DNA of 64,000 nucleotides from Thermoplasmata archaeon (lineage in GTDB: Archaea > Thermoplasmatota > E2 > JACPAO01 > JAHFTW01): contig JAXDQS010000003.1 in NCBI GenBank assembly GCA_034667725.1, forward strand, positions 480,001-544,000. Direction: 5' to 3'. The notes under the pieces were generated by a model, which made no database searches, was not told the DNA's origin, and saw nothing but the letters and a program-made list of their open reading frames with translations. Shown piece after piece: positions 10,193-37,746 of the stretch; within the stretch, counting starts at the first letter, position 1, and every line of letters starts with the position of its first letter. Position numbers and translations under genes: made by a program.

Positions 10193-10265
10193 AGCCCCGT
10201 AGTCTAGTGGTCAAGGATAGGGGACTTTGGATCCTTTGACGTCGGTTCGAATCCGACCGGGGCTA
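10193..10265 (+). tRNA. tRNA-Gln (TTG)
   Basis: AGCCCCG...GGGGA-CTTTGGA-TCCTT...GTCGG-TTCGAAT-CCGAC-CGGGGCT-A; the A1-U72 pair is typical of archaeal tRNA-Gln. Confidence 0.95.
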
Positions 10266-10392
10266 CTCAGGCGGCGGGCGCGGGGCGCCACGCCGCTGGT
10301 GAGCCGCCGGCGGCTTCGGGGTTGCCCGCTTCGCATCGCAACCGCATCGGGAACGCCCTCCGGGGCGTTTCCTCGCCGCATCCGACCGGGGC
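10251..10392 (+). repeat. 13-bp duplication of the tRNA-Gln 3' end flanking a hairpin-rich insert (att-like scar)
   Basis: atccgaccggggc at 10251-10263 and 10380-10392. Confidence 0.65.
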
Positions 10393-10395
10393 GCG

Positions 10396-11703
10396 CTAGT
10401 CTTCCTTCCGCAGCGGCCTCAGCACGCCCGCCATGACGGCGGCGGCCAGGATGGCCAGCACCGGCAGGGGGAAGGCGTCGCGCGGCTGGCGGACGCCTGC
10501 CGGCGTGTCGGCGGCCTGGCCGCGGGGCGCGGGGTCGTTGGCTTCGGCGGCCGGGGCGACGGCGCCCCCCGTGTTGGAGACGAGGTTGGCCGGGACGATG
10601 ACGGTGGGCGTCCCCGTGGGCCGGGGGATGGTGGTGGCTCCGGCGGCGGGGGCGGCCGTGGCGGCGGGTGACGAGGTGGCCGCGGCTGGCGTCGCCTCCG
10701 CCTGGGTGGCGGCGCTCGTGTTCGAGGCGGTGGTCGTCGTGGTGGCGGGCGGCGGGGTGGTGCCGCCGGCCTGGGCGGGCGTCTCGACGGGCTGGTCCTC
10801 GACGACGGACTCGGGCGTGGCCGCTTCGGGCGCGGCGACGGACGTGGACATGACCTGGAGCGTGGGGGCGGCGCCGGGCAGCAGGGGCAGGAGGATGGGC
10901 GTCGGGGAGCCGGGGACGATGGCGGTGGCGTTGTCGATGCCTTGCGGGACGGTGCCGTTGGCGGTGGCGACCAGCTCGACGACGGCGGTGCCGTTGGCGA
11001 GGTCGAGGTCTTGCGGGCGCAGCACCACGACGCCGCCCTGCCGAATGAACTCCAGCGGGAGGGGGCGGCCGTCCTTCAGCACGAGCATCAGCGACTGGAC
11101 GACGGGGGCGGTCGCGTTGGTGGTGGCGTTGCTGGTGCCGTTGAGGATGGGCTTGGCCGATCGGACGGGGCCCGTGTAAACGAGGACTTCCGGCTTGGCG
11201 GCCTCGACGGGCGGCGGCGTGGGCTGGACGGGGACGTCGGGGATGGCGTCGCCTTGGTCGAGGCCCAGGCCGCCGGCCAGGCCGTTGCCGAAGCCGTTGC
11301 CGGAGGAGGCGTCGGCGCCGTTCGCGGCCGCGTCCTGCTTCTCGAGGAACGCGACCAGGCCGAGCGCCAGCGCCATGCCGAGCATGAGGGCGAGGGCGGC
11401 GACGGCGAGGACGAGGTAGAAGCGGACGCGCTGGGGCTCCAGGATGGAGCGGCCGCGCTGCGACAGCGAGTAGTAGACCCAGCGCCGCTCGGGGTCGTCG
11501 AACCGGTCGATGAGGCCGGCCTCCAGGAGCTTCTTGAGGTGCTCGGACACGGCGGGCTTGCCGAGCTCGAGGCGGGTGGCCAGCTCGGCGCCGGTCATGC
11601 GGCGCTCGGCAAGCAGGCGCATGATTTCGCGCCGGGACTCGCTGGAGAGCACCTTCAGAAGGGCGTCGTCCAGCGGCAGCTCAAGGACTGCGGGCGCGGT
11701 CAT
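10396..11703 (-). CDS. ArsR-type HTH fused to TM, low-complexity ectodomain and C-terminal membrane anchor
   Basis: LKVLSSESRREIMRLLAERRMTGAELA...VSEHLKKLLEAGLI...WVYYSL; TM; Thr/Ala/Pro-rich region with multiple NxT/S sequons. Confidence 0.85.
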   Translation of the reverse strand: MTAPAVLELPLDDALLKVLSSESRREIMRLLAERRMTGAELATRLELGKPAVSEHLKKLLEAGLIDRFDDPERRWVYYSLSQRGRSILEPQRVRFYLVLAVAALALMLGMALALGLVAFLEKQDAAANGADASSGNGFGNGLAGGLGLDQGDAIPDVPVQPTPPPVEAAKPEVLVYTGPVRSAKPILNGTSNATTNATAPVVQSLMLVLKDGRPLPLEFIRQGGVVVLRPQDLDLANGTAVVELVATANGTVPQGIDNATAIVPGSPTPILLPLLPGAAPTLQVMSTSVAAPEAATPESVVEDQPVETPAQAGGTTPPPATTTTTASNTSAATQAEATPAAATSSPAATAAPAAGATTIPRPTGTPTVIVPANLVSNTGGAVAPAAEANDPAPRGQAADTPAGVRQPRDAFPLPVLAILAAAVMAGVLRPLRKED

Positions 11704-11887
11704 GCAGGACTCCCATGCGAAAGGGGCCATATCAAGCGTAGGGATGGTGTTCGGTGGGCGCCGAACCTATCGTTCTCCTTCTGATGGCCCCCGGTTTGGC
11801 GGGTCCCGAACCCGGTTTCGGCGCCCGCCGGCCCGGCCGCGATGGGAAAAGCGCAAAAAGACCCCCGCCCGTGGGCGCGCCGTCGCG

Positions 11888-13048
11888 ATGCGCATCGCCA
11901 TCTTCACGGACTCCTGGCTGCCGCGCGTCGACGGGCTCACGACCAGCGTCCAGGGGTTCAAGTCGGCGCTGGAGCGGCGCGGCCACGAGTTCCACGTCTT
12001 CTGCCCGGGGCCGAAGTGGGAACGCACGGCGGACACCACGACCTACAAGGGCGTCCCGTTCTGGGGCTACCCCGACTTCCGCATCTCGTGGCGGTCGGGC
12101 GGCCATGACACGGCCAAGATCCTGCGCGACGAGGGCTTCGACCTGGTCCACATCCAAAGCCCGTTCCTGGTCGGATTGTGGGGCCTGCGGGCCGCCCGCA
12201 AGGTCGGCATCCCGGTCATCACCAGCTACCACACCTACGTCCCCGACCTGGTGCCCTACGTCGTCCCGCCCGGCTTCCGCGGCATGAGCCAGAAACTGGT
12301 GTGGCGGCTCACCGAGACCTTCTTCCAGCGCTGCGACTGCGTCCTGGTCCCGTCCCCCAGCTGCGCCCGCGAGCTGTTGGAGCATGTGCCGCACCACAAC
12401 ATCCCCAATCTCGAGGTCCACGCCAACGGCGTCGACACCGACCGCTTCCACCCTGGCGCCCGCAGCGACCCCATGCGCGCCCGCCTCGGCCCCCCCGGCA
12501 GCAAGATTCTGGTCTCGGTCGGCCGCCTGGCCCGCGAGAAGGACGTCCCGTTCCTGCTGGAGGCGGTCGCCTTGGCCCGCGCCCGCGAGCCCCGCCTGCA
12601 CCTGGCCATCGGCGGCCGCGGCCCCGAGCTGCCCCGCATCGAGGCCCGGATGCGCGACCTGGGCCTGGAGGAGCACGTCACCTTCCTCGGCTTCATCCCC
12701 GACGCCGACCTCGCGATGGTCTACGCCTCGGCCGACGCCTTCGCCAGCGCCTCGCAGTTCGAGACCCAAGGCATGACCGCCGTCGAGGCGATGGCCTGCG
12801 GCACCCCGGTCGCCGCCGTCCGCGCCCGCGGCCTGGCCGACTACGTCCTGCACGGCCGCACCGGCTTCCTGTTCACGCCGGACGAGCCGAAGGACGCCGC
12901 CGAGGCCATCCTGCAAGCCGTCCACGCCGGCCCCGAGGCGCGGCAGGCGGCCCGCGCCCACGCCGAGACCCTCAGCCTGCAGGAGTCGGTCGACCAGCTC
13001 GAGGCGATCTACCGCCGCATCGCCGCCGGCCGGGCCGCGTCCTCGTAG
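11888..13048 (+). CDS. GT4 glycosyltransferase
   Basis: MRIAIFTDSWLPRVDG; NGVDTDRF; VGRLAREK; ETQGMTAVEAMACGTPV. Confidence 0.92.
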   Translation: MRIAIFTDSWLPRVDGLTTSVQGFKSALERRGHEFHVFCPGPKWERTADTTTYKGVPFWGYPDFRISWRSGGHDTAKILRDEGFDLVHIQSPFLVGLWGLRAARKVGIPVITSYHTYVPDLVPYVVPPGFRGMSQKLVWRLTETFFQRCDCVLVPSPSCARELLEHVPHHNIPNLEVHANGVDTDRFHPGARSDPMRARLGPPGSKILVSVGRLAREKDVPFLLEAVALARAREPRLHLAIGGRGPELPRIEARMRDLGLEEHVTFLGFIPDADLAMVYASADAFASASQFETQGMTAVEAMACGTPVAAVRARGLADYVLHGRTGFLFTPDEPKDAAEAILQAVHAGPEARQAARAHAETLSLQESVDQLEAIYRRIAAGRAASS

Positions 13049-14115
13049 GCCGCCAGCACGCCGCGGGCGATGGCGTCCCAGTCGAAGCGGGCGGCCTGCG
13101 CCCGGCTCGCCGCCGACGCGCGCGAGCGGGCGGCCGGGTCCGTGGCCAGCCGCGTGATGGCCTCGGCCCACCGCCGCGGCTCGTGCGGCAGCACCGGGCC
13201 GGCGGCGCCGACCACCTCCGGGATGCCGCCCGCGTCGGCGGCGACCACGGGGGCGCCGCACGCCATGGCCTCCAGGATGCTGATGCCGAACGCCTCGTAG
13301 CGCGCCGGGTGGACGTAGGCGACGGCGCCGCGCAGCAGGGCGTCCTTCTCCGCCTCCTGGATCCAGCCGAGGAAGCGGACCCGGTCGGCGACCCCGAGCC
13401 TGCGGGCCTGCGCCTCCAGCCGCTTGCGGGCGGGGCCTTGGCCGGCGACCAGCAGCTCCAGGTCCCGGGGCACGTCGGGCCAGGCCGCCACCAAGGTGTC
13501 GAGGCCCTTGACGCGCACCACCCGGCCGACGGCGATCGCGTAGGGCTTGGGGCGTTGGGCGGCGGGGCCGTCGGGCTGGGGCTCGACCGCGTTGTGGCTG
13601 ACCCGAAGCTTGTCGGCAGGGCCCCCGTGGGCCTCCAGGTCGCGCCGCAAGAAGTCGCTGACGCACAGGACGCGGCGGGCGTGCCGGAGGGTGCGCATGA
13701 ACATCCGGTCGTTGGCCCGGCTGGCGAGCCCCAGGAGCCCGCGCCCCTCGCCGTAGGTGTTGTGGTAGGTCAGGACGCCCGGGCAGTCCAGCTCCCGGAA
13801 CGCCTTGCTGTAGCTCGGGGACCAGCGGAAATGCAGGTCGACGACGTCCGGCCGGATGTCCCGGATCGCCTGGCCGAGCCCCTTGGTCACCACGGGCGGC
13901 GGATTGTAGAACCGGCGCAGCGGGAAGCTGGACGGCAGCCGATGGACCTGCATCCCGTCCTCCTCCGTGGTGCCGGGCACGGAGCCGGGCTGGGCGGCCG
14001 TGACGACGTGGACCTCGTGGCCCCAGGCCGCCAGCCGCCGCCCCACCGCGCGGATGCGGCGCTCGATGCCGCCCGCGTAGGGAAAGTAGAACGGGTTGAG
14101 CTGGACGACGCGCAC
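13009..14115 (-). CDS. GT4 glycosyltransferase
   Basis: PYAGGIE; VGRVVRVKG; EAFGISILEAMACGAPVV. Confidence 0.92.
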   Translation of the reverse strand: MRVVQLNPFYFPYAGGIERRIRAVGRRLAAWGHEVHVVTAAQPGSVPGTTEEDGMQVHRLPSSFPLRRFYNPPPVVTKGLGQAIRDIRPDVVDLHFRWSPSYSKAFRELDCPGVLTYHNTYGEGRGLLGLASRANDRMFMRTLRHARRVLCVSDFLRRDLEAHGGPADKLRVSHNAVEPQPDGPAAQRPKPYAIAVGRVVRVKGLDTLVAAWPDVPRDLELLVAGQGPARKRLEAQARRLGVADRVRFLGWIQEAEKDALLRGAVAYVHPARYEAFGISILEAMACGAPVVAADAGGIPEVVGAAGPVLPHEPRRWAEAITRLATDPAARSRASAASRAQAARFDWDAIARGVLAAYEDAARPAAMRR

Positions 14116-14222
14116 GCCGGGCCGGCCGACGAGGGCGGGGCCGAAAAGGCTGCCTTTGTGCTTGCCCGGGCGGCAGCGGTTCGGTGGTCTCGGTACCCTC
14201 GGTGGATCCCCTCAGGACTTTG

Positions 14223-14322
14223 TGTGGAATCTGTGTCCAGTCGGCGGCGCGCGACGAGCACTGATTTCCTCAGATTCGGAAGATTCCCACAGAACTCTGT
14301 GGAATCTGTGTCCAGTCGGCGG
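14223..14322. repeat. 25-bp direct repeat with degenerate CACAGA/TCTGTG 9-bp units (REP-like)
   Basis: tgtggaatctgtgtccagtcggcgg at 14223 and 14298. Confidence 0.75.
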
Positions 14323-14424
14323 GGTTCACGGGGGGCCGGACGAGAACCCCTGAAGTGGTTCCGTGGGACTCGGCGCGTTCCAGGTTGGGCCAAGCCTCAA
14401 GCCGCCTGCCCAGGTTCCGCCGTC

Positions 14425-14886
14425 ATGCCCGCCAAGAAGGCGACGCCGGCCAAGGGCGCCACCACCCGCGTCTCCGGCGAGGGCTACACCACGGCCTCGA
14501 CCTTCAGCCCGCGCATGGCCGCCGCGTGGAAAGAGCTCGACGCCGCCGTCCGCCGCGTGTTCCCCAAGGCCGAGCCGGTGTTCGACTACGGCGTGCGGGG
14601 CTGGCGGGTGCCGCGCCCCCTCAAGGTCGAGGCGTGGAAGGGCACGATGGACCCCAACTGGCTGACCCTCTACCTGGCGGAGCGGGCGCAGGGCATCACG
14701 CTGCACTTCTGGAACCCGTGCGAGCCCGGCTTCCTCAAGCGCAAGGGCCCGGAGCTGGCGCCGCACGGGCTCAAGGCGATGGTGGGCTGCCTGCAGTTCA
14801 CGCGCAAGGGGGACTATCCCGTGCCGGTCATCGAGGGGTTGCTGCGCGAGGCGCGGGGCCAGATGGAGTCCGAGGCGCCGCGGTAG
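14425..14886 (+). CDS. DUF1801/YdhG-like protein
   Basis: PKAEPVFDYGVRGW...LAERAQGITLHF...GCLQF pattern; CCTCAAG box about 24 nt upstream. Confidence 0.65.
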   Translation: MPAKKATPAKGATTRVSGEGYTTASTFSPRMAAAWKELDAAVRRVFPKAEPVFDYGVRGWRVPRPLKVEAWKGTMDPNWLTLYLAERAQGITLHFWNPCEPGFLKRKGPELAPHGLKAMVGCLQFTRKGDYPVPVIEGLLREARGQMESEAPR

Positions 14887-15237
14887 CTACACCGCGCCGA
14901 CCAGCGCCAGCACCGAGAGCAGGTTCCACACCACGACCGCCATCGAGACGCAGCCCACCACCAGCAGGCCCCAGTGCGCAGCACCGCCGCGGCCCATCGC
15001 GACCTGGCGGCCGGCGACGGCGAGGATCAGCAGCAGCCCCGCCAGCTTCGCGGCCAGGAGCGCCTCGTAGCCGTGCGCCACCAGGACGCCGGCGAGGGGG
15101 CCCAGCTCGATGGCGCCCTGCTCCAGCGCCCACGCGGTCGTGAGGACGTCGAGGTACCAGAGGCAGCCGATGGCGAGCCCCGCGATGGCGAGGCCAGCCC
15201 GCTCTGGGGCAGGCAGGTGGAGAGACTGAGTGCGCAT
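14887..15237 (-). CDS. small 3-TM membrane protein (DUF5658-like)
   Basis: LDVLTTAWALEQGAIELGPL...AKL...VVVWNL. Confidence 0.7.
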   Translation of the reverse strand: MRTQSLHLPAPERAGLAIAGLAIGCLWYLDVLTTAWALEQGAIELGPLAGVLVAHGYEALLAAKLAGLLLILAVAGRQVAMGRGGAAHWGLLVVGCVSMAVVVWNLLSVLALVGAV

Positions 15238-15298
15238 GGCCCCAGGTGTGGGCGGCCGGCACGGATGCAGCCACGGGTGGCGGCAAGCGGGCTTTGTC

Positions 15299-17224
15299 CT
15301 AGGGCGCGGGCGTCACCCGGAAGGCCGCGAGCGGGGCGCCGCGCAGCTCGACCAGGCCGACGCCGGACAGCCTGCGCAGGTGGTAGACGGTGGCGCCGTA
15401 GCTGGTCTCCAGGCGGCGCGCCGCCTCCACGACGGTGATGCCGGGCTCCTGGTGCAGCAGCGCCTCCAGCCGGCACGCCAGGTCGGTCTTCAACAGGCCG
15501 TCCGTGGGGCACGCGGGCGCGGAGGCCAGGTAGACGCAGACGTAGCGGCCGGCCTTGCGCTGCCGCACCAGCCCCGCGCGCTCCAGCACTTGGAGGTGGT
15601 GCTGCAAGGCGCCGCGGCCGCACCCCGCCAGCCGGGCCAGCTCGTTGAAGTGGATGCCTGGCGCCGCCGCGAGGTGGGCGAGGATGCGCGCCCGGGTCGG
15701 CTGGTCGGCAACACTTTGCCCGCCCAGCCGCGAGAACAGCCCGACCGCCGCGGCCGGCACCGTGCGCCACAGCGCCCAAAGCGGGAACACGGCCACCCCC
15801 AGCCCGGCCAGGAGCGGATGCGGCGGCGCGACGCCGGCCAGCGGTGGCGGCGCGGGCGCGGCCGGCGGCGCGACGCGCGGCGTAGCCGTCCTCGCCACCG
15901 GCAGGGGCGAGCACGCGTCGCCCGGCCCGGCGCCGTCGAGGTCGGCCTGGTCGGCGTTGGGCGTGTCCGGGCAATTGTCGGGGAACGCGGCGACCCCCTG
16001 CTGCGCGATGCCGTCGCCGTCGCGGTCGGCGTCGCAGGCGTCGCCTTGCCGGTCGAGGTCGAGGTCCTGCTGCGCGGCGTTGGGCTCGGCGGGGCAGTTG
16101 TCGGCCTCGTCCTGGACGCCGTCGCGGTCGCTGTCGCGCACGGGCTTGGCCACCGCCGGAAGGATCAGGCTCGACGGGGCCGCGGGGACCACGGGCGCCT
16201 CGACGCAGGCCTCCGGATGCAGCACGCAGCCCTCCAGGCGGGGCGCGACGGGCTCGTGGTGCGGCGGCAGCAACGGGGCGACCGGCGACGGCGCCGACGG
16301 GCACAGGCCCGCGGCCGGCGCGAGGCATTCGGCGATGCCGTCGAACCGGAGCCGCCAGAACGCCTGGCCGTCCCACGACAGCAGCGCGGGCACCGGGTCG
16401 AACTGGCCGGGCAGGAAGGTGTACTGCCGCGTCGTCGCGTTGTAGCGCAGCAGGTTGAGGCGGTCGAAGCTCCAATGCTCGTAGGCCAGCAGGGCGCCCT
16501 CGTCGCGGGCGGTCTGCACCAGCCGGCCGCCGACCCGGTCGATGGGCAGCCACGCCGGCGTCGCCGTGCCCGGCAGCTCCTCGAAGGCGGCGCCGTCGTA
16601 GGCCAGCATGGCGTGGCCGCCGCCGGACAGGAACGCAAGCACGTGCGCCGTGGCGCCGTCCCAGATGAGGCCGCGGGCCGCGAGGAACCGCGGCGGCGCA
16701 GGGCTCGCGGGCCGGAACGCGTCGGCCGCGGCGTCGTACTGCTGCGGCGGCGCCGCCAGCGCGGCGGGCACCAGCGTCAGGCCGTTGGCGGTGGCGAAGT
16801 GCGACGGCCGCGCGTCGCCGCCCCACGGCGCCGGCGGCGCGGCAGGGCTCGCGGCGCGCGCCGCAACACAGCCGCACGACTCGCGCCACAGCAGCGCGGG
16901 CGCGCCGGGCGTGACCACGAGGAGCTCGCCGGGCGCCACGACGTGGACCGTGCCGAGGCCGGCGGCCGCGGGCAGCCGCGCGAGGCGTTCACTCGTGCCG
17001 GCGGCCGGCAGGTAGCGCTCCAGCGTGGCGTCGCCGTGGCCGTCGCAGGCTGCGCGGACGTAGTAGAACGCGCCGGCCATCCATTGGCCGTCGGCGCAGT
17101 CGTCGGGCGCGAGGCCGACGCGGCCGGTGGCTTGCACGGCCCAGACGCCGTCCGATTGCGCGTCCGCGGCCGCCACCAGCGGCACCGCGAACGCCAGCAA
17201 CAGCAGCCAAGCCCGTCCCGCCAC
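15299..17224 (-). CDS. receptor-like regulator: signal peptide, kelch/beta-propeller-like domain, thrombospondin type-3 repeats, TM, tandem winged HTH
   Basis: DSDRDGVQDEADNCP..PNAAQ.DLD.D..GDAC twice; GLFSRL...PGIHFNELAR...LQHHL.VLE.AGLV; PGITVVEAA...YHLRRL. Confidence 0.85.
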   Translation of the reverse strand: MAGRAWLLLLAFAVPLVAAADAQSDGVWAVQATGRVGLAPDDCADGQWMAGAFYYVRAACDGHGDATLERYLPAAGTSERLARLPAAAGLGTVHVVAPGELLVVTPGAPALLWRESCGCVAARAASPAAPPAPWGGDARPSHFATANGLTLVPAALAAPPQQYDAAADAFRPASPAPPRFLAARGLIWDGATAHVLAFLSGGGHAMLAYDGAAFEELPGTATPAWLPIDRVGGRLVQTARDEGALLAYEHWSFDRLNLLRYNATTRQYTFLPGQFDPVPALLSWDGQAFWRLRFDGIAECLAPAAGLCPSAPSPVAPLLPPHHEPVAPRLEGCVLHPEACVEAPVVPAAPSSLILPAVAKPVRDSDRDGVQDEADNCPAEPNAAQQDLDLDRQGDACDADRDGDGIAQQGVAAFPDNCPDTPNADQADLDGAGPGDACSPLPVARTATPRVAPPAAPAPPPLAGVAPPHPLLAGLGVAVFPLWALWRTVPAAAVGLFSRLGGQSVADQPTRARILAHLAAAPGIHFNELARLAGCGRGALQHHLQVLERAGLVRQRKAGRYVCVYLASAPACPTDGLLKTDLACRLEALLHQEPGITVVEAARRLETSYGATVYHLRRLSGVGLVELRGAPLAAFRVTPAP

Positions 17225-17349
17225 GGCCGTCTTGATCGGTCGCGGGAATAAAGGAATGGTGGGACGGTCCCTTAGCAAGCCTCAAGCAGAAAGGCTGCCT
17301 TTCCTGGGGTCGCGTCGCGGAAAAGAGAAGGAGGAGGGGAGGAGGTCCG

Positions 17350-17634: not shown

Positions 17635-17701
17635 CCCAACCGCTTCGGCTGGGCTTCGCCGGACCCGCTTAGGCACATATGCCGCTTTTGGCTGATCGTG
17701 G

Positions 17702-26297: not shown

Positions 26298-26336
26298 GGA
26301 TGCCCCGGTTCTGTCCCTGCTGCCTATTAGATTGTT

Positions 26337-27917: not shown

Positions 27918-27952
27918 AGGGCCTTTTGTAGGACCATCCCCTCGGCGCCGCC

Positions 27953-28576: not shown

Positions 28577-28580
28577 GCCG

Positions 28581-29165: not shown

Positions 29166-29212
29166 GCCTTGGGCGAGCGGCCGCCTCACCTGACGGCTTC
29201 GGCCGCGGCAAC

Positions 29213-31774
29213 TCACCATTGCACCACGCGGGCGCCGATGCGGCCCGCGGCCACGTCGCGCCCGGCCACCTGCACCCGCACCCGGTCGCCCAGGCGCGCG
29301 CGCACCAGGCGCGACTCGCCGGTGTCCGGGTCGGCCCACGTGCGCCAGCCCGTGGGGTCGGTGACGTCGCGCGGCTCCTGGTAGAGCATCGACTCCCACT
29401 CGTCGACCTGGAACGGGCCGCCGGGCAGGTCGCGCAGGGCGATGCGGGCGTCGAGGCCGCCTTCGAGCTCGACGAACATCCAGACCGGCGTGAAGCCGCC
29501 GACCCTGCCTTGCGTCGGCATCTCGTCCCCGGCCAGCACGAGGCAGCTGGCCTTGATGCGGCGCTCGAGCTGGTCGGCGGCGCGCTCCTGGCTGCTGCAG
29601 TGGTCGCACATCGCCTGGAGCGACTGCTCGCTGTGCGGCGCCGGCCCCTTCGAGCCCTCGACGAGCCACTTGAGGTTGCGGTGCACCACCAGGTCGGGGT
29701 AGCGCCGGATCGGGCTGGTGAAGTGGCAGTAGTAGGTCGAGGCGAGGCCGAAGTGGCCGGCGTTCTCCGGCATGTAGGCGGCGCGGCCCATGGCGCCAAG
29801 CACCTTGATGGTCGCGATCTCGGCCAATGCCGCGTCCGGCAGGTCCGACAGGGTGTCCACGACCTCGCGGAACGGCTCCAGCCAGGCGTCCTGCTCCTCC
29901 TCCGAGAGCGCCGCGAAGCCGACCTTGGCCGTGACGCCGCCATCGGGGGCGGGCGCCGCTGGGGCCTCGACGGCGCCGCCGAACATCTGCAGCTTGCCGC
30001 CGCCTTTCTTGAGCTGGTCGAGCAAGGTCTCGGCGGCGGCCTCGGCGCCCCGGGTGCTCTTGCCGGGCAGCACCATCTCGGCCGGGATGCCCATGGTGGC
30101 AAGCTGGTGCTTGAGCCGCTCGGCCTTGTCGCGGTCGGGCAGCGGGTGGACGCGGTACAGGACGGGGACCTTGTTCTCGGTGAGGTGGCGGGCGACCGCC
30201 TCGTTGGCGGCCACCATGAACATCTCGATCATGCGGGTGGCGTCGTCGGCGCGCTTCTCCAAGGCCGAGAACCCGGCGGCGCCGAGGATCACTTTCAATT
30301 CGCCGGTCTCCAGGTTGATGCCGCGGCGGTGCTGCCGCATCCGGTCGGCCAGCTCCATCAACTGCTTGAACGGGGACTGGCCGGCCCGGGCGCGCTGCAA
30401 CGCGGTCTCGTACGCCAGGTTCTCGCGCACCCGGATGAGGGCCTTGTGGAACTGCATCCCCTCGACGCGGCCGTCGGCGCCGACCTCCAAGCCCACGCTC
30501 AAGGCCATGCGGTCGCCGTCGCTGCGCAGGCTGCACAGGTTGTCGGAGATGCGGGCCGGCAGCATCGGCAGCACGCGGCCCGGCAGGTAGACCGAGGTGG
30601 CGCGCTTGCGGGCGTGGCGGTCGAGCGTGGTGTCGAGCCGCACGTAGTGGCTCACGTCGGCGATGTGGACCCAGAGCCGGACCCGCCCCGCGCCAAGGTC
30701 CTCGATGCCGACGGCGTCGTCGAAGTCCTTGGCGTCGTGCGGGTCGATGGTGTGGCACTCCAGGCCGCGCAGGTCGGTGCGGTCGGGGTCCTCGGCCAGC
30801 GTGGGCTCCGCGAACTTGGCGGCGGCCTCCTCGGCCCGGGGGTCCTCGGTGTGCTCGAAGAACTCCTCCTGGTTGACATGGCGGCGGATGAGCGCCCCGA
30901 CCGCCTCCTGCGGCGACCAGAGGCCCCACGCCAGCAGGCAATGGACGTAGTCGCTCGAGTGGCTGGTGTGCTCGCCCAGCCAGTCCTGCGCCAGGAAGCC
31001 GAGCTGGCGATGCAGGTCCAGGCCGAACGCCTGCACGGCCCCCAGCCCGCCGATGCCGCGCACCGGCTCCCCGTCGCGGGGGACGCCGTCCCACTCCACG
31101 AACTGGCGCATCGCGGGTTCGACCCACTCCAAGGTGGCGCGCGCGGCCTCCGACGGCTGGGTGGCGGCGCGGCGGAACGAGCGCCCCTCCTCCGTCTCCT
31201 CCTCGGCCACCAGCTCCCGCCGGAGCCGCTGCAGCTCCTCCCACGCGGCCCGCATCCGGTCGTGCTCGGCCAGGCTCCACGGCCGCCACCGGTCGCCGCG
31301 GCCGCCGACCGTCTGGAAGCGGCCGGTGCCGGGACGGCGGCAGCGGTCGAGGGCGGCGCGCGCGTCGCGCAGCTGGCCCGGCGACGGGTCGGAGCCGTAG
31401 TGCGCCTGCGCAATCTGGAGGTCGGTCCAGGACTCGCGGTCGTCGCGGCAGGTCGCCTGCCACAACGCCTCCTCCAGCCGGCCGAGGTCGTCCTCGCCCT
31501 CCTCCGCCAGGTTGCCCTTGGCGTGGACCTCGACGAGGTGCTTGAGGCGGGCGAGCGCCTCCTCGTGGTCGCGCAGGTCGCCGGCGTAACGCTCGCGGAA
31601 GACGCGCCGCGTGAGGTGCTCCGCCTTCGTCTCCTTCACGCCGGCCACGGTCAGAAGTCGCGCCCACGGCACGCCCTTGACGCGATAACGGTCGAGCAGG
31701 ATGCCAAGGTTGCGCGGCGCCTCGATGCCGTGCGTCCCCGGCTTGAACTCGACCACGTCGCCCGGCTTGGACAT
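29213..31774 (-). CDS. rnr: RNB-domain exoribonuclease (RNase R/II family)
   Basis: TIDPHDAKDFDDA; VHIADVSHYV; TSVYLP; IEMFMVAANE; HFGL...YCHFTSPIRRYPDLVVHR; C-terminal S1-like domain. Confidence 0.9.
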   Translation of the reverse strand: MSKPGDVVEFKPGTHGIEAPRNLGILLDRYRVKGVPWARLLTVAGVKETKAEHLTRRVFRERYAGDLRDHEEALARLKHLVEVHAKGNLAEEGEDDLGRLEEALWQATCRDDRESWTDLQIAQAHYGSDPSPGQLRDARAALDRCRRPGTGRFQTVGGRGDRWRPWSLAEHDRMRAAWEELQRLRRELVAEEETEEGRSFRRAATQPSEAARATLEWVEPAMRQFVEWDGVPRDGEPVRGIGGLGAVQAFGLDLHRQLGFLAQDWLGEHTSHSSDYVHCLLAWGLWSPQEAVGALIRRHVNQEEFFEHTEDPRAEEAAAKFAEPTLAEDPDRTDLRGLECHTIDPHDAKDFDDAVGIEDLGAGRVRLWVHIADVSHYVRLDTTLDRHARKRATSVYLPGRVLPMLPARISDNLCSLRSDGDRMALSVGLEVGADGRVEGMQFHKALIRVRENLAYETALQRARAGQSPFKQLMELADRMRQHRRGINLETGELKVILGAAGFSALEKRADDATRMIEMFMVAANEAVARHLTENKVPVLYRVHPLPDRDKAERLKHQLATMGIPAEMVLPGKSTRGAEAAAETLLDQLKKGGGKLQMFGGAVEAPAAPAPDGGVTAKVGFAALSEEEQDAWLEPFREVVDTLSDLPDAALAEIATIKVLGAMGRAAYMPENAGHFGLASTYYCHFTSPIRRYPDLVVHRNLKWLVEGSKGPAPHSEQSLQAMCDHCSSQERAADQLERRIKASCLVLAGDEMPTQGRVGGFTPVWMFVELEGGLDARIALRDLPGGPFQVDEWESMLYQEPRDVTDPTGWRTWADPDTGESRLVRARLGDRVRVQVAGRDVAAGRIGARVVQW

Positions 31775-32448
31775 CAGAGGCCCGCGCAGAGGTCCTTGAG
31801 CGCCACCGCCGGCTTCCGCGCCTTCACGACGCCGGACGCCACCAGGACGCCGTGCGCGCCCAGCTCGATGGCCTTGGCGACGTCGTAGCCGGTCTTGACG
31901 CCGGCTCCGCACAGCACCTTGGTCTTGGCGCTCACCCGCTTGACCGCCTCGACGGCCTCCGACACCACCGTCGGGTCCGCCGACGTCACCGACACCTCGC
32001 CGCCGATGAGCTCGGGCGGCTCGATGGCGATGGCGAGCGGCTTGAGCTTCGCCAGCATCCGCGCCTCCACCACCGAGTCGGCGCACAAGAGCACCGGCAG
32101 CCCGGCCACCAGGCAGCGGGCCATCGTGTCGCGCGCCACCGTCGGGCCCACCTTGTGCTCGGCGTGGTTCAGGATCGTGCCCTTGGCGCCCGCCGCGCGC
32201 GCCGCGTCGGGCCCGGCGAAGCCGGTGCCGACGCCGGGGCCGCGGTCGTCCACGTGCTGGGCCCAGACCTGGACGCGGCCGCGCCGGCCCCTGCCGACGC
32301 GGGCCAGCTCCGGCATGGGGGGCGCGATGGCCATCTCGCAGCCGGCGGCCGTGGCCGCCTCCTGGGCGGCCCGGAGCAGCAGGTCGAGGCCGCGGCCGGT
32401 GGCCTCGGGGTAGGCCTTGCAGTTGACGATGATGGGCGGGAGCGCCAC
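31774..32448 (-). CDS. tpiA: triosephosphate isomerase (archaeal short type)
   Basis: IVNCKAY; AQHVD; LNHAEH; IEPPELIG; LCGAGV; GVLVASG. Confidence 0.95.
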   Translation of the reverse strand: MALPPIIVNCKAYPEATGRGLDLLLRAAQEAATAAGCEMAIAPPMPELARVGRGRRGRVQVWAQHVDDRGPGVGTGFAGPDAARAAGAKGTILNHAEHKVGPTVARDTMARCLVAGLPVLLCADSVVEARMLAKLKPLAIAIEPPELIGGEVSVTSADPTVVSEAVEAVKRVSAKTKVLCGAGVKTGYDVAKAIELGAHGVLVASGVVKARKPAVALKDLCAGL

Positions 32449-32517
32449 GGCGGGCCGATCGGCGTTGGGGCGAAAGCCTTGGCGACGCCTTTTTGCGGGG
32501 GCCGGCGTCGCGCGGCC

Positions 32518-33291
32518 ATGGTCGCGCCGAACCTGGTGGGCTCCGTCGGGTTGCTGCTTGCAGGCATGGGGCTCCTGTTCCTGTACCTGCGGCGCTACGA
32601 GGGCCACTTCGACCAGCCGCGGCTGTTCTTCGCGCTCCTCGTGGGCCTGTTCGCGGGCGCACTGCTGCGCTTCATGGAGCAGAAGCTGTTCGGCTTCGAG
32701 GTGCCGCGCCTGCTGCAGCCCGAGGGCGACCTGGCCACCGCGACCCTGGTCTACTCCGCCGCCTACAGCACGGTGGGCTACGCAATGCTGGAAGGGGCCG
32801 CCAAGACCGCGATCCTGGGCCTCAAGAAGTTCCGCACCCGCGCCGACGCCCCGTTCCATGGCGCCGCCATGGGCATCGGCTTCGGCGCCATGTGGGCCAG
32901 CGCGGTCGCGACCACCTTCTTCATCTCCGACGGCAAGGACATGGTGCTCACCGGCCCCGCCGTGCTGTTCGACCTGTTCGTGCTGGCGCTCGCCTTCGCC
33001 ATGCTGCTCGCCAACGCCGCCTCGGGCGTCTGGGTCGGCCGCGGCGCCGCCCAAGGCTCCCTCTGGCGCGGCCTCATGCTCGGCACCCTCTGGCAGATCC
33101 CGGCGCTGGCGTGCTACTGGGCGTTCCTCAACATCGCGGGCGCCGTCGTCCTCAGCTCGCTTTTGGCCCTCGCCTACGGCATCCTGGCCGTCTACGTCGC
33201 GGACAAGCGCATCCTGCAGCCCGCCATCCCGCCCGAAGTGCGCGACCAGCTGCGCCGCCAGGAACGCCGCGAGCGCCGCAAGGCCACCTAG
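32518..33291 (+). CDS. PrsW-like multi-TM membrane protein
   Basis: About 7 TM; LEGAAK and G.A.GIGFGA resemble PrsW motifs but are degenerate. Confidence 0.65.
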   Translation: MVAPNLVGSVGLLLAGMGLLFLYLRRYEGHFDQPRLFFALLVGLFAGALLRFMEQKLFGFEVPRLLQPEGDLATATLVYSAAYSTVGYAMLEGAAKTAILGLKKFRTRADAPFHGAAMGIGFGAMWASAVATTFFISDGKDMVLTGPAVLFDLFVLALAFAMLLANAASGVWVGRGAAQGSLWRGLMLGTLWQIPALACYWAFLNIAGAVVLSSLLALAYGILAVYVADKRILQPAIPPEVRDQLRRQERRERRKAT

Positions 33292-33746
33292 ATGTCCACC
33301 ATCCGGTAGAAGCCCGCGCGCGGCTCCAACAGGACGTCCATCGCGAGCATCCGGACCAGCTCCGCCTCGGCCCGCTTGCGCTCCAGGCCCGCCTTCTCCA
33401 GCGCCTCCAGGAGGTCGTCGCGCGCCGCGACGCCGCACAGCCGGCTCAAGGCGAGCGCCACCAGCTCGGCGCGGCTCGACTTGTTGGCGATGCCGGCGCC
33501 CTGCGCGGCGGCCGCCTCGACCGGCGAGTCGTGGCGCGGCAGGCGCGGCCGCGTGAGCGCCTCCGGCACGGCGCCGCCGAGGGTCGCGACCACCGCCCGC
33601 GCCTCGGCCGCGGAGCCGCCGGACCAGCGCAGGCGCGCGGGCTCCAAGGCGACGGCGCGGCGGCAACGCGGGCAGGCCGCCTGGGCGTGCCGCAGCTCGA
33701 CCGCCCAGGCTTGGCCGCAGCCGCACTGCGCGACGCCGAACGTCAC
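33288..33746 (-). CDS. zinc-ribbon plus winged-helix protein (DUF1922/DUF5817-like)
   Basis: QCGCG..W...CPRC; C-terminal LLEPRAGFYR. Confidence 0.7.
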   Translation of the reverse strand: MTFGVAQCGCGQAWAVELRHAQAACPRCRRAVALEPARLRWSGGSAAEARAVVATLGGAVPEALTRPRLPRHDSPVEAAAAQGAGIANKSSRAELVALALSRLCGVAARDDLLEALEKAGLERKRAEAELVRMLAMDVLLEPRAGFYRMVDI

Positions 33747-33889
33747 CCCTCCACCACCACGCGCGCCGGGCCGGCGCCGGGGAGGCGGAAGGCCATGCGG
33801 TCCATGCAGGCGCCGCAGCGCACGAGGCCAGCCATGGCGTCCGCGTCAAAGAGGCCGCGACAATGGTTGCAAGCGATCCAGAGTCCCAT
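33743..33889 (-). CDS. 48-aa C4 zinc-finger microprotein
   Basis: CNHC...CGAC; GTGA overlap with the next gene. Confidence 0.55.
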   Translation of the reverse strand: MGLWIACNHCRGLFDADAMAGLVRCGACMDRMAFRLPGAGPARVVVEG

Positions 33890-33991
33890 CGCACGGCGGA
33901 TTCGCTGGGAGGGGATGGACGTTGCAGGGAGGCGGGTGAATCCTTGCGCGACCCCAAACGGCCATGAAGCGCCACCCGGTCGCCGCCCCCG

Positions 33992-35560
33992 ATGACCTGG
34001 GATGCCGTGGCCGACGTCCTCGCCGGCCGCAAGACGGGGCAGACGGTGCGCCTGCGCGGCTGGGTGCACCGCTCCCGCTCCGCCGGCAAGATGGCCTTCA
34101 TCGTGCTGCGGGACGGCTCCGGCGGCGTCGTGCAGTGCACCGTCAAGGGCGGTGCGGTGGAAGACAAGGACCTGGAGGCGGCGAAGTCCGCCGGCATCGA
34201 GTCCAGCGTGCAGCTGCTGGAAGGGACCGTGGTGGCCGACGAGCGCGCCCCCGGCGGCTTCGAGGTCAAGGCGACCCGGTTCGAGCTGCACCGCAAGGCC
34301 GAGGCGTTCCCGCTGCGCGGCGAGCAGGGCACCGAGTTCGAGCTGGACAACCGCCACCTCTGGCTCCGGAGCACCGAGCTTTCTGCGATCCTGCGGGTCA
34401 AGGGCCGGCTCTACAAGGCCATCCGCGACTTCTACGCGGCGGAGGGGTTCGTGGAAGTGGATCCAAGTGTGATCACCACCAACGCCTGCGAGGGCGGCTC
34501 CACCCTGTTCACCTTCGACTACTTCGGCCAGACGGCCTACCTGTCCCAGTCGGCGCAGATGTACCTGGAGGGCTGCATCTTCGGCATCCCCAAGGTGTTC
34601 AGCATCACGCCCAGTTTCCGCGCCGAGAAAAGCCGGACCAACAAGCACCTCACCGAGTTCCATCATCTGGAAGCGGAGTACGCCTGGTGGGACGCCGAGG
34701 ACAACCGCGTGTTCCAGGAGCGCATGGTGACGCATTTGGCGCACACGGTGGCGAAGGAGTGCGAGGCCGACCTTCGGTTGCTGGGGCAGGACCCCGCCAA
34801 GCTGCTGCGGATCGGGACGTATGAGCCGGGCAAGTCCCTGGCCGACGAGCCGGGCAAGCGGTTCCCGCGCGTGGACTACGCGGCGGCGGTCGAGGAGCTG
34901 CAACGGCAAGGGTTCCACCTTCCTTATGGCGAGGATTTCGGCGTCCCGCACGAGAAGGCCCTGACGGAAGGGAGGGTGAACCCGATGTTCATCTGCGATT
35001 GGCCCGCGCGGATCAAGGCGTTCTACATGGCCGAGAAGCAGGGCACCGACCGCGTGCTGTGCAGCGACATGCTCGGCCCCGATGGGTATGGCGAGATCAT
35101 TGGCGGGAGCCAGAGGAGCGAGGACATCGAGAGCATGAAGCGCCGCCTGTCCGCGCAACTCCTGGCCGAAGCCGCCGAGAAGGCCGAGGAGCAGCACAAG
35201 AAGCTCGACTTCGGCATCCTCGACGGCACCCGCACGGTCGGCACGCCCGCGGAAGCGGAGGCGTTCTTCCAGGCCGTGTGCGAGCTCACCGGCACCAAGT
35301 TCACCGACGTCACGGTGGAGGCCATGGCCGGGTCCCGCGACCGCTCCACCCCGCGCGCGGCCCAGGACGCCTGGACCGACGCCTACTGGAAGGCCAGCCT
35401 GGCCCCCTACCAGTGGTACTTCGACCTCCGCCGCTACGGCTCCGTCCCCCACTCCGGCTTCGGCCTCGGCATCGAGCGCCTCCTTCGCTGGTTCACCGGC
35501 CAGGAGCACATCCGCGACATGCTGCCGTATCCGCGGACGCCGTCGAGGGCGTACCCATGA
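33992..35560 (+). CDS. asnS: asparagine--tRNA ligase
   Basis: LRGWV; LRDGSG; CEGGSTLF; YLSQSAQMYLE; FRAEKSRT.KHLTEF; EIIGGSQR; WYFDLRRYGSVPHSGFGLGIER. Confidence 0.95.
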   Translation: MTWDAVADVLAGRKTGQTVRLRGWVHRSRSAGKMAFIVLRDGSGGVVQCTVKGGAVEDKDLEAAKSAGIESSVQLLEGTVVADERAPGGFEVKATRFELHRKAEAFPLRGEQGTEFELDNRHLWLRSTELSAILRVKGRLYKAIRDFYAAEGFVEVDPSVITTNACEGGSTLFTFDYFGQTAYLSQSAQMYLEGCIFGIPKVFSITPSFRAEKSRTNKHLTEFHHLEAEYAWWDAEDNRVFQERMVTHLAHTVAKECEADLRLLGQDPAKLLRIGTYEPGKSLADEPGKRFPRVDYAAAVEELQRQGFHLPYGEDFGVPHEKALTEGRVNPMFICDWPARIKAFYMAEKQGTDRVLCSDMLGPDGYGEIIGGSQRSEDIESMKRRLSAQLLAEAAEKAEEQHKKLDFGILDGTRTVGTPAEAEAFFQAVCELTGTKFTDVTVEAMAGSRDRSTPRAAQDAWTDAYWKASLAPYQWYFDLRRYGSVPHSGFGLGIERLLRWFTGQEHIRDMLPYPRTPSRAYP

Positions 35561-35691
35561 GCGTGGCTTTGGTCGGGGGGCCGAGCGAAGCGAGCGCCCC
35601 CCTTGACGCGGGGGAGTCCCTCGGGGGCGGAGCCCCCAGGCGGGGCATGCTGCCCTACCCGCGCACGCCGTCGAGGGCCTACCCTTGAGCG
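35518..35691 (+). repeat. duplicated asnS 3' end (46 bp) flanking a REP-like hairpin insert
   Basis: MLPYPRTPSRAYP* is encoded at 35519 and again at 35647; 5 differences, all synonymous. Confidence 0.9.
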
Positions 35692-35700
35692 CTCCGGACA

Positions 35701-35761
35701 ACCACGGACCGCACGGATTCCACGGACCTAGGGTCTCCGTGCGATCCGTGAAATCCGTGGT
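35701..35761. repeat. palindromic element of 9-bp units (CACGGA x3 / TCCGTG x3)
   Basis: accacggaccgcacggattccacgga-cctagggtc-tccgtgcgatccgtgaaatccgtggt. Confidence 0.9.
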
Positions 35762-35781
35762 CCCAGGCGGAGGCGCGTAGC

Positions 35782-36168
35782 GTGCCGAAGCGCCGCGAGA
35801 TGCAGAAGGCCCGCGCCGGCATGTCGGTCAGCGAGGAGACCGTCGCCCTCTACGGCGCCGCCCGCGCCTTCCTCATCGGCGAATGGATCGGGGCCCTGCT
35901 GATGCTCTCCTCGTTCACGCTGCTCTACCTGCTCTACGCCGCCACCGCCTGGTCGCCGAAAAGCATCCTCATCGCCACCTTGGGCCTCATGGGCGTCGGC
36001 ACCGTCGCCTACCTGCGCAGCCGGGCCTACTACCAGCGTATCGCGTTCCCCTACGCCCCCCGCGCCCACCTCGGCGCCCTGCTGGTGGCCGGCTCGGCCG
36101 TCGTGTTCTGGCTGCTGTTCGCGCTGCTGGAAATCCTGGTGGGGCTCGGCGTCGAGGTCGGCGGTTAG
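35782..36168 (+). CDS. hypothetical 3-TM membrane protein
   Basis: Hydrophobic ORF with GC3-rich codon usage. Confidence 0.7.
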   Translation: MPKRREMQKARAGMSVSEETVALYGAARAFLIGEWIGALLMLSSFTLLYLLYAATAWSPKSILIATLGLMGVGTVAYLRSRAYYQRIAFPYAPRAHLGALLVAGSAVVFWLLFALLEILVGLGVEVGG

Positions 36169-36187
36169 GGTTTTGCCCTAACCCTGA

Positions 36188-37108
36188 GTGCCCGCCCCCG
36201 TGCCCGCCACGGCCTCCCCTCAAGTCGTGACCTCGACCGACCTCCCCTTCAAGGTGTTCCGCAAGGGCAAGGTGCGCGACGTCTACGACCTCGGCGACCG
36301 CCTCCTCATGGTCGCGACCGACCGCATCAGCGCCTTCGACGTGGTGCTGGAGCCCGGCATCCCCCTCAAGGGCGCCTGCCTGACGCAGATCAGCAACTTC
36401 TGGTTCCACCAACTGCGCGACGAGGTCCCGAACCACCTCGTGGAGACCGACGTCGCCCGCTTCCCCAAGGAACTGCAGCCCTACGCCGCGATGCTCAAGG
36501 GCCGCGCCGTCCTGGTCGAGAAGCTCAAGCCGCTGCCGGTCGAGTGCATCGCCCGCGGCCACATCTCGGGCTCCGGCTGGAAGGAGTACAAGAAGTCCGG
36601 GACCGTGTGCGGCATCAAGCTCCCCCCCGGCCTCCAGGAGTCGCAACGCCTCCCCGAGACCATCTTCACGCCCAGCACCAAGGCGGACGAGGGCCACGAC
36701 GAGAACATCAGCTTCGCGGAGTGCGAGAAGATCGTCGGCAAGCAGACGGCCGCCTGGCTGCGCGACACCACCATCCGCATCTACGAGACGGCCCGCGCCC
36801 ACGCCGCCGAGCGCGGCATCATCATCGCCGACACCAAGTTCGAGTTCGGCACCCGCGCCGACGGCACCATCGTGCTCATGGACGAGATCCTCACCCCCGA
36901 CTCCAGCCGCTTCTGGCCGATGGAGTCGTTCAAGCCTGGCGGCAGCCCGCCCAGCTTCGACAAGCAGTTCCTGCGCGACTGGCTCGAGACCCAGCCCTGG
37001 GACAAGACGCCCCCCGGCCCCCGCCTGCCCCCGCAGGTCGTGGAGGGCACCGCCCAGCGCTACTACGAGGCGTACGAGAAGCTCACGGGCAAGCCGTTCC
37101 GGGTCTAG
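36188..37108 (+). CDS. purC: phosphoribosylaminoimidazolesuccinocarboxamide (SAICAR) synthase
   Basis: GKVRDVY; ATDRISAFD; TPSTKA; ADTKFEFG; DEILTPDSSRFW; SFDKQFLRD. Confidence 0.96.
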   Translation: MPAPVPATASPQVVTSTDLPFKVFRKGKVRDVYDLGDRLLMVATDRISAFDVVLEPGIPLKGACLTQISNFWFHQLRDEVPNHLVETDVARFPKELQPYAAMLKGRAVLVEKLKPLPVECIARGHISGSGWKEYKKSGTVCGIKLPPGLQESQRLPETIFTPSTKADEGHDENISFAECEKIVGKQTAAWLRDTTIRIYETARAHAAERGIIIADTKFEFGTRADGTIVLMDEILTPDSSRFWPMESFKPGGSPPSFDKQFLRDWLETQPWDKTPPGPRLPPQVVEGTAQRYYEAYEKLTGKPFRV

Positions 37109-37161
37109 GGTTCAAGCCGCTCTTCAACGTGCTTATAACGGCCCCAAGAATCGAAACCACG

Positions 37162-37509
37162 ATGCGCATCCCGGTCGCCGACCGCCTCCTCGCGGTCGTG
37201 GGCTACCTTCCGTTCCTGTTCTGGGTTCCGGTGGTCCTGAAGCGCGACTCGATGTTCTGCCAGTTCCACGGCCGGCAGGGCGGCGTCCTGTGGGCGCTCT
37301 GGTTCGTCCCGGTCTTCCTCATGCTGGTGGTGTCGGTCTTCGTGCCCGACCTCACCGTCGGCTCGGTGGGCCCGTTCTACTTCGGCGCCATGATGGTACT
37401 CACGGGCATCTACCTCCTGCTGGTGCTGGTCGGCGTCCTCAAGGCGCTGCTGCGCGAGCGGTACAGGATGCCGATCGTGGCGGACCTTGCGTTGAAGATG
37501 GGCTTGTAG
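37162..37509 (+). CDS. DUF4870/Tic20-like small membrane protein
   Basis: GYLPFLFWVP...FCQFHGRQG...YRMPIV; CTTATAA box about 24 nt upstream. Confidence 0.75.
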   Translation: MRIPVADRLLAVVGYLPFLFWVPVVLKRDSMFCQFHGRQGGVLWALWFVPVFLMLVVSVFVPDLTVGSVGPFYFGAMMVLTGIYLLLVLVGVLKALLRERYRMPIVADLALKMGL

Positions 37510-37746
37510 CCGCGTGATGGAGGGCCGCAGCGCAGCGGAGGCCCCCTCCCTAGCAACATGCCGGCTGGGTTCGCAGCCGACAGGATGCCCATCGTGGCGG
37601 ACCTTGCGTTGAAGATGGGCTTGTAGCCGCGTGATGGAGGGCCGCAGCGCAGCGGAGGCCCTCCCTGGCAACATGCCGGCTGGGTTCGCAGCCGACAGGA
37701 TGCCGATCGTGGCCGACCTCGCCCTGAAGATGGGCCTGGAGCCCGT
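37463..37746 (+). repeat. tandem repeat, 2.4 units of 115-117 bp: gene 3' end (47 bp) plus ~70-bp double-hairpin element
   Basis: acaggatgcc..atcgtggc.gacct.gc..tgaagatgggc at 37463, 37580 and 37695. Confidence 0.92.

Follow-up and report, generated by a model that had tools for sequence, protein, structure and literature searches.

Duplicated gene ends around small hairpin-rich cassettes in a Thermoplasmatota archaeon: candidate non-autonomous gene-end-replacement elements

Background

Several kinds of mobile elements are associated with a replacement or duplication of the end of the gene in which they reside. Fungal mitochondrial mobile open reading frames (ORFs) carry a foreign C-terminus of the target gene, as in the case of atp6 in Allomyces, and among integrative elements, gene-less derivatives flanked by att sites are exemplified by the cis-mobilizable elements (CIMEs) of streptococcal integrative and conjugative elements. 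In Torulaspora and Lachancea yeasts, homing of the WHO elements at FBA1 replaces the 3' end of this gene, and the old end remains downstream, where it provides a second stretch of homology (eLife 2020, PMC7282813). Here we analyze a 64,000-nucleotide stretch (hereafter, the window) of contig JAXDQS010000003.1 from the metagenome-assembled genome (MAG) of an uncultured Thermoplasmatota archaeon from soil/groundwater (GCA_034667725.1, denoted G000; 2.32 Mb in 26 contigs, 71% GC, 90% complete), in which a tRNA-Gln gene, asnS and a small membrane-protein gene are each followed by a hairpin-rich cassette and a second copy of their own 3' end. This common layout had been proposed in a reading of the window from its sequence alone (hereafter, the sequence-only reading), and it holds for all three loci, the inserts being 66-116 bp long and devoid of ORFs. 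Below, contigs of G000 are given C numbers, and G and L numbers (G002, L050 and so on) denote the related genomes and records used for comparison.

The cassettes resemble WHO elements and mobile ORFs in that a new 3' end of the target appears to be brought in, with the old end displaced, decaying and possibly serving as second homology; furthermore, arrays can build up, and the alleles are polymorphic between lineages. However, WHO elements and mobile ORFs encode their own endonuclease, occupy one target gene each and are kilobases long. By contrast, the cassettes described here span 45-220 bp, contain no ORF and are found at more than 30 targets with shared modules, and many of the copy pairs are identical, with no obvious resistance. 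With tyrosine-integrase elements and CIMEs, the cassettes share the duplication of the target 3' end, an apparently element-supplied functional copy and boundaries in the tRNA T-loop; they differ from these elements in that the cargo consists of only two or three hairpins, many different targets are used in a single genome and no integrase is found in or near the cassettes. Unlike the sites of tyrosine integrases, these loci have no fixed crossover core: the tRNA-Gln boundary varies, and the asnS junction is kept in most of the filled lineages, L050 being an exception. Full-text literature searches found no paper describing such gene-less, end-replacing cassettes.

Results

Tail duplications recur across the genome

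A genome-wide scan for tail repeats, the check suggested in the sequence-only reading, compared the final 45 nt of each of 3965 ORF ends (called by third-position GC) with the region 20-330 nt downstream. When the downstream regions were permuted among genes, the maximum score was 16, compared with 27 ends scoring 17 to 42 in the real data. At 19 of these 27 high-scoring loci, all in protein genes, there is a true tail duplication, with a GC-rich hairpin insert of 45-220 bp between the two tails. Dropped from the set were adjacent ribosomal P1-like genes and tandem PstS genes, which are ordinary paralogues, as well as matches with periods in the range of 264-327 bp, each a multiple of 3, which represent false antisense ORFs in repeated protein-domain sequence. 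In addition, cassettes were identified at 12 or 13 of the 47 tRNA genes, each with a displaced 3' end (13-44 nt) that is located 83-266 bp downstream and begins, nearly always, in the T-loop.

Together, the protein and tRNA genes give more than 30 loci with a working end, a cassette and a displaced copy, so that further cases are clearly not lacking; a duplication, of 13-95 bp, is present at every one of these loci, and the periods range from 72 to 266 bp. Thus, we are dealing with a recurrent system rather than with three coincidences. The periods reported earlier for the window (129, 128 and 117/115 bp) are correct, but the significance attached to their similarity is not, because, given the genome-wide range, this similarity is coincidental.

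The protein targets include both subunits of DNA polymerase D (PolD DP1 and PolD DP2), Orc1/Cdc6, uS15, asnS, a DRG-type GTPase, glutamate dehydrogenase, a FlaI-like ATPase and others. Thus, apart from about a quarter of the tRNA genes, the targets are mostly conserved single-copy genes, which are usually the choice of selfish, site-specific elements. At several loci (C3:174677, C9:801 and C2:110109), the cassette is inserted a few codons ahead of the native stop and itself provides the final residues together with the stop codon.

Several loci depart from the common arrangement. At tRNA-Ser TGA (C2:79234-79500, minus strand), the arrangement is a mirror image, with the cassette on the 5' side, and the duplicated segment of about 70 nt consists of the 5' half of the tRNA and about 40 bp of upstream DNA, the upstream part having diverged in blocks; hence, the system is not restricted to 3' ends. 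At C10:248900-248945, half a cassette, which comprises hairpin B and the linker but only the 3' arm of hairpin A (see below), stands right after a stop codon with no detectable duplication and may be a remnant or a case with a very short duplication. At C7:17040-17760, a gene tail (ending in LPDLPPPPSH and the stop) is repeated 595 bp downstream with mostly synonymous differences, and the insert contains, in place of the hairpin modules, an ORF of about 150 aa that looks glyoxalase/VOC-like by eye; this locus may represent the same layout with a cargo added. For two tRNA-Leu genes (C4:41350-41434 and C5:34506-34588), both displaced copies have GGGTCGAATCC at the place (the T54 position) that is occupied by GGTTCGAATCC in the functional tRNAs.

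Replaced ends of asnS and the small membrane-protein gene

The asnS gene (33992-35560, plus strand), which encodes asparaginyl-tRNA synthetase and was assigned as an ORF with orthologues in the relatives, ends in a putative replacement tail (the final 43 nt and the stop, 35518-35563). This tail is followed, on the same strand, by a cassette of 82 bp (35564-35645) and by the displaced tail (35646-35691), which is ancestral-like and is joined to the native downstream DNA. The two tails, 128 bp apart, are identical at 41 of the 46 positions, and all 5 differences are third-position, synonymous ones. It is the in-gene tail that shows the derived or unusual synonymous states (TAT, CGG, GCG and CCA), whereas the states of the displaced tail are common to most of the relatives. 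In particular, the asnS tail of the closest relative matches the displaced copy at 39 of 41 positions and the in-gene copy at 36 of 41. The distance between the two copies, 5 of 41 positions, compares with 2 to 12 of 41 between the displaced copy and the tails of other species. Directly after the displaced tail, at 35692-35770, lies a diverged copy of an unrelated repeat family that is described below.

Comparison of the asnS locus across genomes reveals a mosaic of filled and empty alleles. The site is empty in most of the other genomes examined and is filled at the same junction, where the cassette ends in G and GCATGCT follows, in three lineages (G000, G015/L052 and L056); in L053/L069 it is filled 2 nt further upstream, and in L050 with a much longer duplication of about 140 bp. 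The two copies are identical in G015 and show only synonymous differences in L056, and in L053 the displaced copy has decayed, with non-synonymous changes. The cassettes at the same site in different lineages differ in sequence and cannot be aligned. The rare codon TAT is common to the in-gene tails of three filled lineages, and nearly all empty alleles have TAC; judging from these sequences, the pattern fits either tails travelling with the cassettes or convergent recoding.

The small membrane-protein gene (37162-37509, plus strand; 115 aa, with orthologues in 9 relatives) has no Pfam match, so that its earlier label, DUF4870-like, is unconfirmed. Its tail is present three times on the plus strand, with periods of 117 and 115 bp: the putative replacement tail in the gene (copy 1, 37463-37511), copy 2, one base off copy 1 (37580-37628), and the displaced native tail (37695-37743). 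These are separated by a first cassette of 68 bp (37512-37579) and a second one that is 2 bp shorter (66 bp, 37629-37694). Comparison of copies 1 and 2 shows a difference at 1 of 77 aligned bases, and the cassettes that follow them differ by the 2-bp indel and one substitution. The third tail shows six differences, five of them synonymous and the other one a change of the stop codon, TAG, to GAG, and runs into native intergenic DNA and a promoter-like TTGGCAAACCTTAT. All nine orthologues stop right after the final Leu, have the codons of the displaced copy and carry the same intergenic motif directly behind the stop; therefore, the in-gene TAG is the true stop, which the displaced copy has lost. 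For the two-cassette array (37463-37743), the simplest explanation would be unequal crossing-over within the left part of the repeat, where 19 nt are identical.

The two copies of each gene end diverge as coding sequences

The original observation that the copies at the two window protein genes differ only by synonymous changes, apart from one stop codon, stands, and it extends to the genome-wide set. Among 56 differences in 20 copy pairs, 42 fall on codon position 3, a distribution that is not random with respect to codon position, and 47 (84%) are synonymous. The expected synonymous fraction is 24% for random change and 39% for an in-place duplication after which the in-gene copy is constrained and the other copy drifts; the excess over the latter expectation is highly significant (p=8e-12, with the pooled sites not fully independent of one another). 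Hence, both copies look like ends that have evolved as coding sequence. Given that the relatives resemble the displaced copies at both window genes, the displaced copy at these genes appears to be the resident end and the in-gene copy the newcomer.

The substitutions across the pairs are of all kinds and are not base-specific. The degree of divergence is uneven: the copies are identical at asnS of G015 and at most tRNAs, and show 5-6 synonymous differences at both window genes. The contrast between C-rich codons in the displaced copies and G/T variants in the in-gene copies, noted in the sequence-only reading, is apparent at 9 of 10 sites in the window genes but does not extend to the genome as a whole, where the in-gene codon is the rarer one at 26 sites and the commoner one at 17 (p=0.22). 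Because this asymmetry is not significant genome-wide, it is not a signature of the mechanism.

The tRNA-Gln locus

The functional tRNA-Gln(TTG) gene (10193-10266, plus strand; found by ARAGORN and, with 64.8 bits, by the Rfam tRNA model) is followed on the same strand by a 116-nt cassette (10264-10379) and a displaced 3' end of 13 nt (10380-10392; tRNA positions 59-71). The 13-nt sequence ATCCGACCGGGGC at 10251-10263 is thus repeated with a period of 129. Taken alone, this repeat is borderline, a score of 13 arising once by chance in 47 control scans. The duplication starts in the T-loop, as in 8 other tRNA cases, and the related genomes G004, G005 (with two tandem cassettes), G006 and G009 carry cassettes with displaced ends of 19-32 nt at the same tRNA, with empty sites in G002 and G007; this sequence comparison supports a case that would otherwise be weak. 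The duplication boundary depends on the lineage and falls at tRNA position 33, 41, 55 or 58.

The cassette contains a weak antisense match to the T-loop and 3' end (GCCGCCGGCGGCTTCG; score 9, rank 13 of 56, not significant alone), and its module GGTTGCCCGCTTCGCATCGCAACC recurs at C10:457949 and C10:296637. In the Rfam 15 search over the whole window, only tRNA-Gln passes, and nothing at E<=0.5 overlaps the cassettes. On the minus strand, a gene for an ArsR/MarR-type winged-helix regulator (10396-11730) ends 4 nt from the displaced tRNA fragment, so that the cassette occupies the whole spacer between the convergent genes.

Structure and distribution of the cassettes

The cassettes at unrelated targets have modules in common. 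In the short type, to which the asnS cassette belongs by a strict pattern match, hairpin A with the loop GAGCGNAGCGAG is followed by a linker and by hairpin B (GGGGCGNAGCCCC), which lies a few bases before the displaced copy. In the asnS cassette itself, hairpin A consists of a G-run, the loop CGAGCGAAGCGAG and a C-run, and hairpin B is GGGGGCGGAGCCCCC; sequences 96-100% identical to this 26-nt hairpin A are found at several loci of G006 and G008. The first membrane-protein cassette combines the hairpin GGAGGGCC/GCAGCGCAGCGGA/GGCCCCCTCC, related to hairpin A of the short type, with the module AACATGCCGGCTGGGTTCGCAGCCG, of which the genome has 6 copies. The claim that the inserts at these two genes share a related hairpin loop, of the GAGCGNAGCGAG type, is therefore correct. 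The cassette loops contain GCGNAGC, with GNA-type triloops (GCGAAGC and GCGCAGC); GCGNAGC mini-hairpins are very stable in single-stranded DNA. Compared with shuffled sequences under nearest-neighbour DNA parameters, the folding energies of the three window inserts are not unusual (z of -1.4, +0.2 and -1.1), and the ends of the cassettes, by eye, are not inverted copies of each other.

Of the 401 Thermoplasmatota genomes sampled, 5 contain the strict short-type pattern, including 4 from the genus of G000, and the reversed-pattern control gave none. Three of the four short-type copies in the same-genus relatives (G004, G005 and G006) are flanked by duplications of other targets.

In a longer class, found mostly at tRNAs, each cassette also contains an imperfect copy, in antisense orientation, of the site it targets; this copy could serve as a guide or adopt a fold that mimics the target. 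When cognate and non-cognate pairs of cassettes and targets were compared, the antisense copy was significant for the tRNA cassettes (p=0.009), being clear for Leu, Arg, Thr, Pro and Asn. An antisense arm spanning the left junction is present at about five protein loci, and for the protein loci overall the test is not significant (p=0.31). Both window protein-gene cassettes, that of asnS (rank 12 of 56 against non-cognate pairs) and that of the membrane-protein gene, lack such an arm; accordingly, the notion of an antisense arm in every cassette was rejected. The outcome of the test implies at least two classes of cassettes.

The hairpin pair (loop GAGCGNAGCGAG followed by GGGGCGNAGCCCC) was also seen on 12 IMG/VR contigs with 34-63% GC (L094-L105). 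In one of these, labelled GVMAG (L097:9575-9676, 47% GC), a 46-bp cassette lies within a perfect 28-bp direct repeat, and in L105 the hairpins bracket three DnaA-box-like TTATCCACA repeats; the ORFs next to the IMG/VR hairpin pairs have no Pfam match.

A second, unrelated family of intergenic repeats with lower GC (CCCACAGA...TCTGTGGAATCTGTGTGC) is organized in tandem arrays, the periods being about 75 and about 117 bp; most of the genome's tandem repeats with periods that are not multiples of 3 belong to this family. In the window, it is found at 14223-14322 and, as indicated above, behind asnS; arrays are located at C10:118957-119428, 124255-124668, 130993-131283, 146528-146816 and 149103-149362 and at about 25 more loci of G000.

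Discussion

The reading that we favor, with moderate confidence, is that these cassettes are non-autonomous, replace gene ends and spread between related archaea by recombination, whatever the trigger. The family would be made up of protein-less DNA cassettes that are very small (about 45-220 bp) and rich in hairpins, each joined to a spare end of one gene or tRNA, and the mobile unit would be the replacement end together with the cassette, the spare end having come from another lineage. Upon entry of the unit into a naive allele, the gene would read into the imported end and stay functional, and the resident end would be pushed downstream and left as a stub; this stub could then provide the second stretch of homology through which the unit passes between chromosomes and between related species by recombination. 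We infer the transfer between lineages and the recombination route from sequence comparisons. The layout, the coding-type divergence of the copies, their polarity and the distribution of filled and empty alleles match the model of the yeast WHO elements. The sequence-only reading saw in the pattern the trace of elements that import a substitute for part of their target, a suggestion that is supported. The same reading envisaged a trans-mobilized non-autonomous element: the cassettes indeed carry no gene, which means that a factor acting in trans or a recombination route is needed, but a mover in trans was not found, and recombination offers an alternative.

Several observations weigh against this reading. 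Many of the copy pairs are identical, so a nuclease that recognizes the native site would also cut the filled allele; hence, simple homing by cleavage and resistance is not the whole story. The origin of more than 30 different custom ends is unexplained. The asnS cassettes of different lineages cannot be aligned with one another, so that descent of an asnS-specific cassette from a common ancestor is unproven; a donor genome with exactly the in-gene tail was not found, and neither was a match to an empty asnS allele of the G000 type in a metagenome scan, which is uninformative on absence. The search for a mover was likewise largely negative. G000 has no match to Y1 transposase, Cas1 (PF01867), reverse transcriptase (RVT_1), TnpB-type (zinc ribbon) or Piwi proteins; Y1 transposase was detected in the control genomes and in none of the 32 genomes of the family. 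LAGLIDADG domains (LAGLIDADG_3) occur in 5 of these 32 genomes, not including G000, and only within very long open frames (600-1800 aa), which suggests that they are probably inteins; no free-standing homing endonuclease emerged from this search.

These negatives also bear on the mechanisms considered earlier. Rewriting of gene ends by reverse transcription is without support, given the lack of an RVT_1 match and the substitutions that are not base-specific. The description of the sole cargo as REP-like denotes only a resemblance, given the absence of RAYT/Y1 from the 32 family genomes. Finally, the term micro-integrative is doubtful if an integrase is meant: G000 has one weak match to tyrosine recombinases (PF00589; C10:27530-28006, 26-27 bits, below the Pfam cut-off), on a contig other than that of the window, and the tRNA-Gln boundary depends on the lineage.

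A more tentative idea, which we consider possible although rather unlikely, is that archaea harbor a new class of mobile elements without proteins, in the form of a folded single strand that bears a spare, functional end of an essential gene or tRNA, a common hairpin core with DNA-type GNA triloops and, in many of the elements, an antisense "address" across the insertion site; the site would be chosen by base pairing, and a host enzyme or an unrecognized one would perform the insertion.

Among the other explanations, scars of integrases, that is, larger plasmids or proviruses that integrated at 3' ends with a copy of the end borne on attP and were then mostly deleted, leaving attL and attR close together, seem improbable. 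The T-loop is a classic crossover place of tyrosine integrases, and it is there that the displaced tRNA copies start; attP sites do carry replacement ends from another lineage, and the genome has one tyrosine-recombinase-like ORF. However, each of the more than 30 loci would have to be reduced by deletion to 45-220 bp, with the same hairpin modules remaining at unrelated targets. The single integrase match is weak (26 bits) and has no second copy, the tRNA-Gln boundary is lineage-dependent, and a scan for full-length autonomous elements, with tail copies 0.3-80 kb downstream, yielded only paralogues, false antisense ORFs and the 595-bp insert of the C7 locus. Somewhat more improbable still are local errors of replication or repair, in which stalling at hairpins followed by fold-back and template switching generates a sense-antisense-sense arrangement in place. 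The longer cassettes, where two sense copies of the target enclose an antisense one, have the shape expected from two switches, and the identity of many copy pairs agrees with such an origin, but it would leave unexplained the identical modules at unrelated genes and in other genomes (the short type is already present at many targets), the synonymous-only divergence with an ancestral-like displaced copy and the stop codons supplied by cassettes.

We strongly disfavor a non-autonomous transposon, akin to MITEs (miniature transposable elements with inverted repeats) or REPs, with unusually long target-site duplications the copies of which then drifted. Direct repeats around a short repeated insert, the identity of some copy pairs and the perfect 28-bp duplication around a similar 46-bp cassette in an unrelated IMG/VR contig are what such a transposon would produce. 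Nevertheless, drift predicts 39% synonymous differences and change mostly in the displaced copy, compared with the observed 84% and an ancestral-like displaced copy, so that long target duplication with drift is rejected by the synonymous excess reported above; in addition, the duplications are of variable length (13-95 bp), and the searches yielded no transposase family. An assembly artefact, in the form of strain-chimeric joins, is scarcely credible: although the genome is a MAG and near-identical units of 117/115 bp can be miscounted by assemblers, chimeric joins would not add a conserved hairpin cassette, more than 30 loci share modules, and the same layout is seen in independent MAGs from other studies and assemblers.

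Compared with other small elements, the gene-end-replacement cassettes combine familiar features in a different way. Like IS200/IS605, PATE and REP/RAYT elements, they are small, hairpin-based and gene-less, but those elements do not duplicate the target and need a Y1 (HUH) transposase, whereas here duplications of 13-95 bp are found and Y1 is not; the target-complementary segment of the longer cassettes recalls the guide sequences of IS608. The folded single strands that mimic a duplex target in CTXphi attP(+)/XerCD and integron attC recombination could explain the antisense arm at the left junction; those systems use one fixed site (dif or attI), whereas here the sites differ from locus to locus, and nothing links the single XerA-like ORF of G000 to the cassettes. 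Unlike MITEs, the cassettes have no fixed duplication length, and the copies diverge in a coding-like manner. Diversity-generating retroelements differ in that they involve a reverse transcriptase and adenine-specific change, in contrast to the lack of an RVT_1 match and the substitutions of all kinds, together with their synonymous bias, seen here, and insertion by casposons or Cas1 is not suggested either, there being no PF01867 match in G000. The similarity of the cassettes to mitochondrial GC clusters and double-hairpin elements is only a loose one.

Conclusions

If the cassettes are mobile, the strategy of replacing a gene end and leaving the old one behind needs no nuclease encoded by the element, and the elements can be miniaturized to less than 100 bp and colonize a quarter of the tRNA genes as well as core replication and translation genes. 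Mobility would raise the questions of whether the mover is a host enzyme or a hidden one, whether the antisense arm is a guide, and whether gene ends are moved between species in uncultured archaea. Annotation pipelines will miss such cassettes, and the stubs they displace can be taken for pseudogenes or for errors of assembly. Should the address-guided element prove to be true, it would represent a natural "insert-and-rescue" drive that spreads between species without encoding anything.

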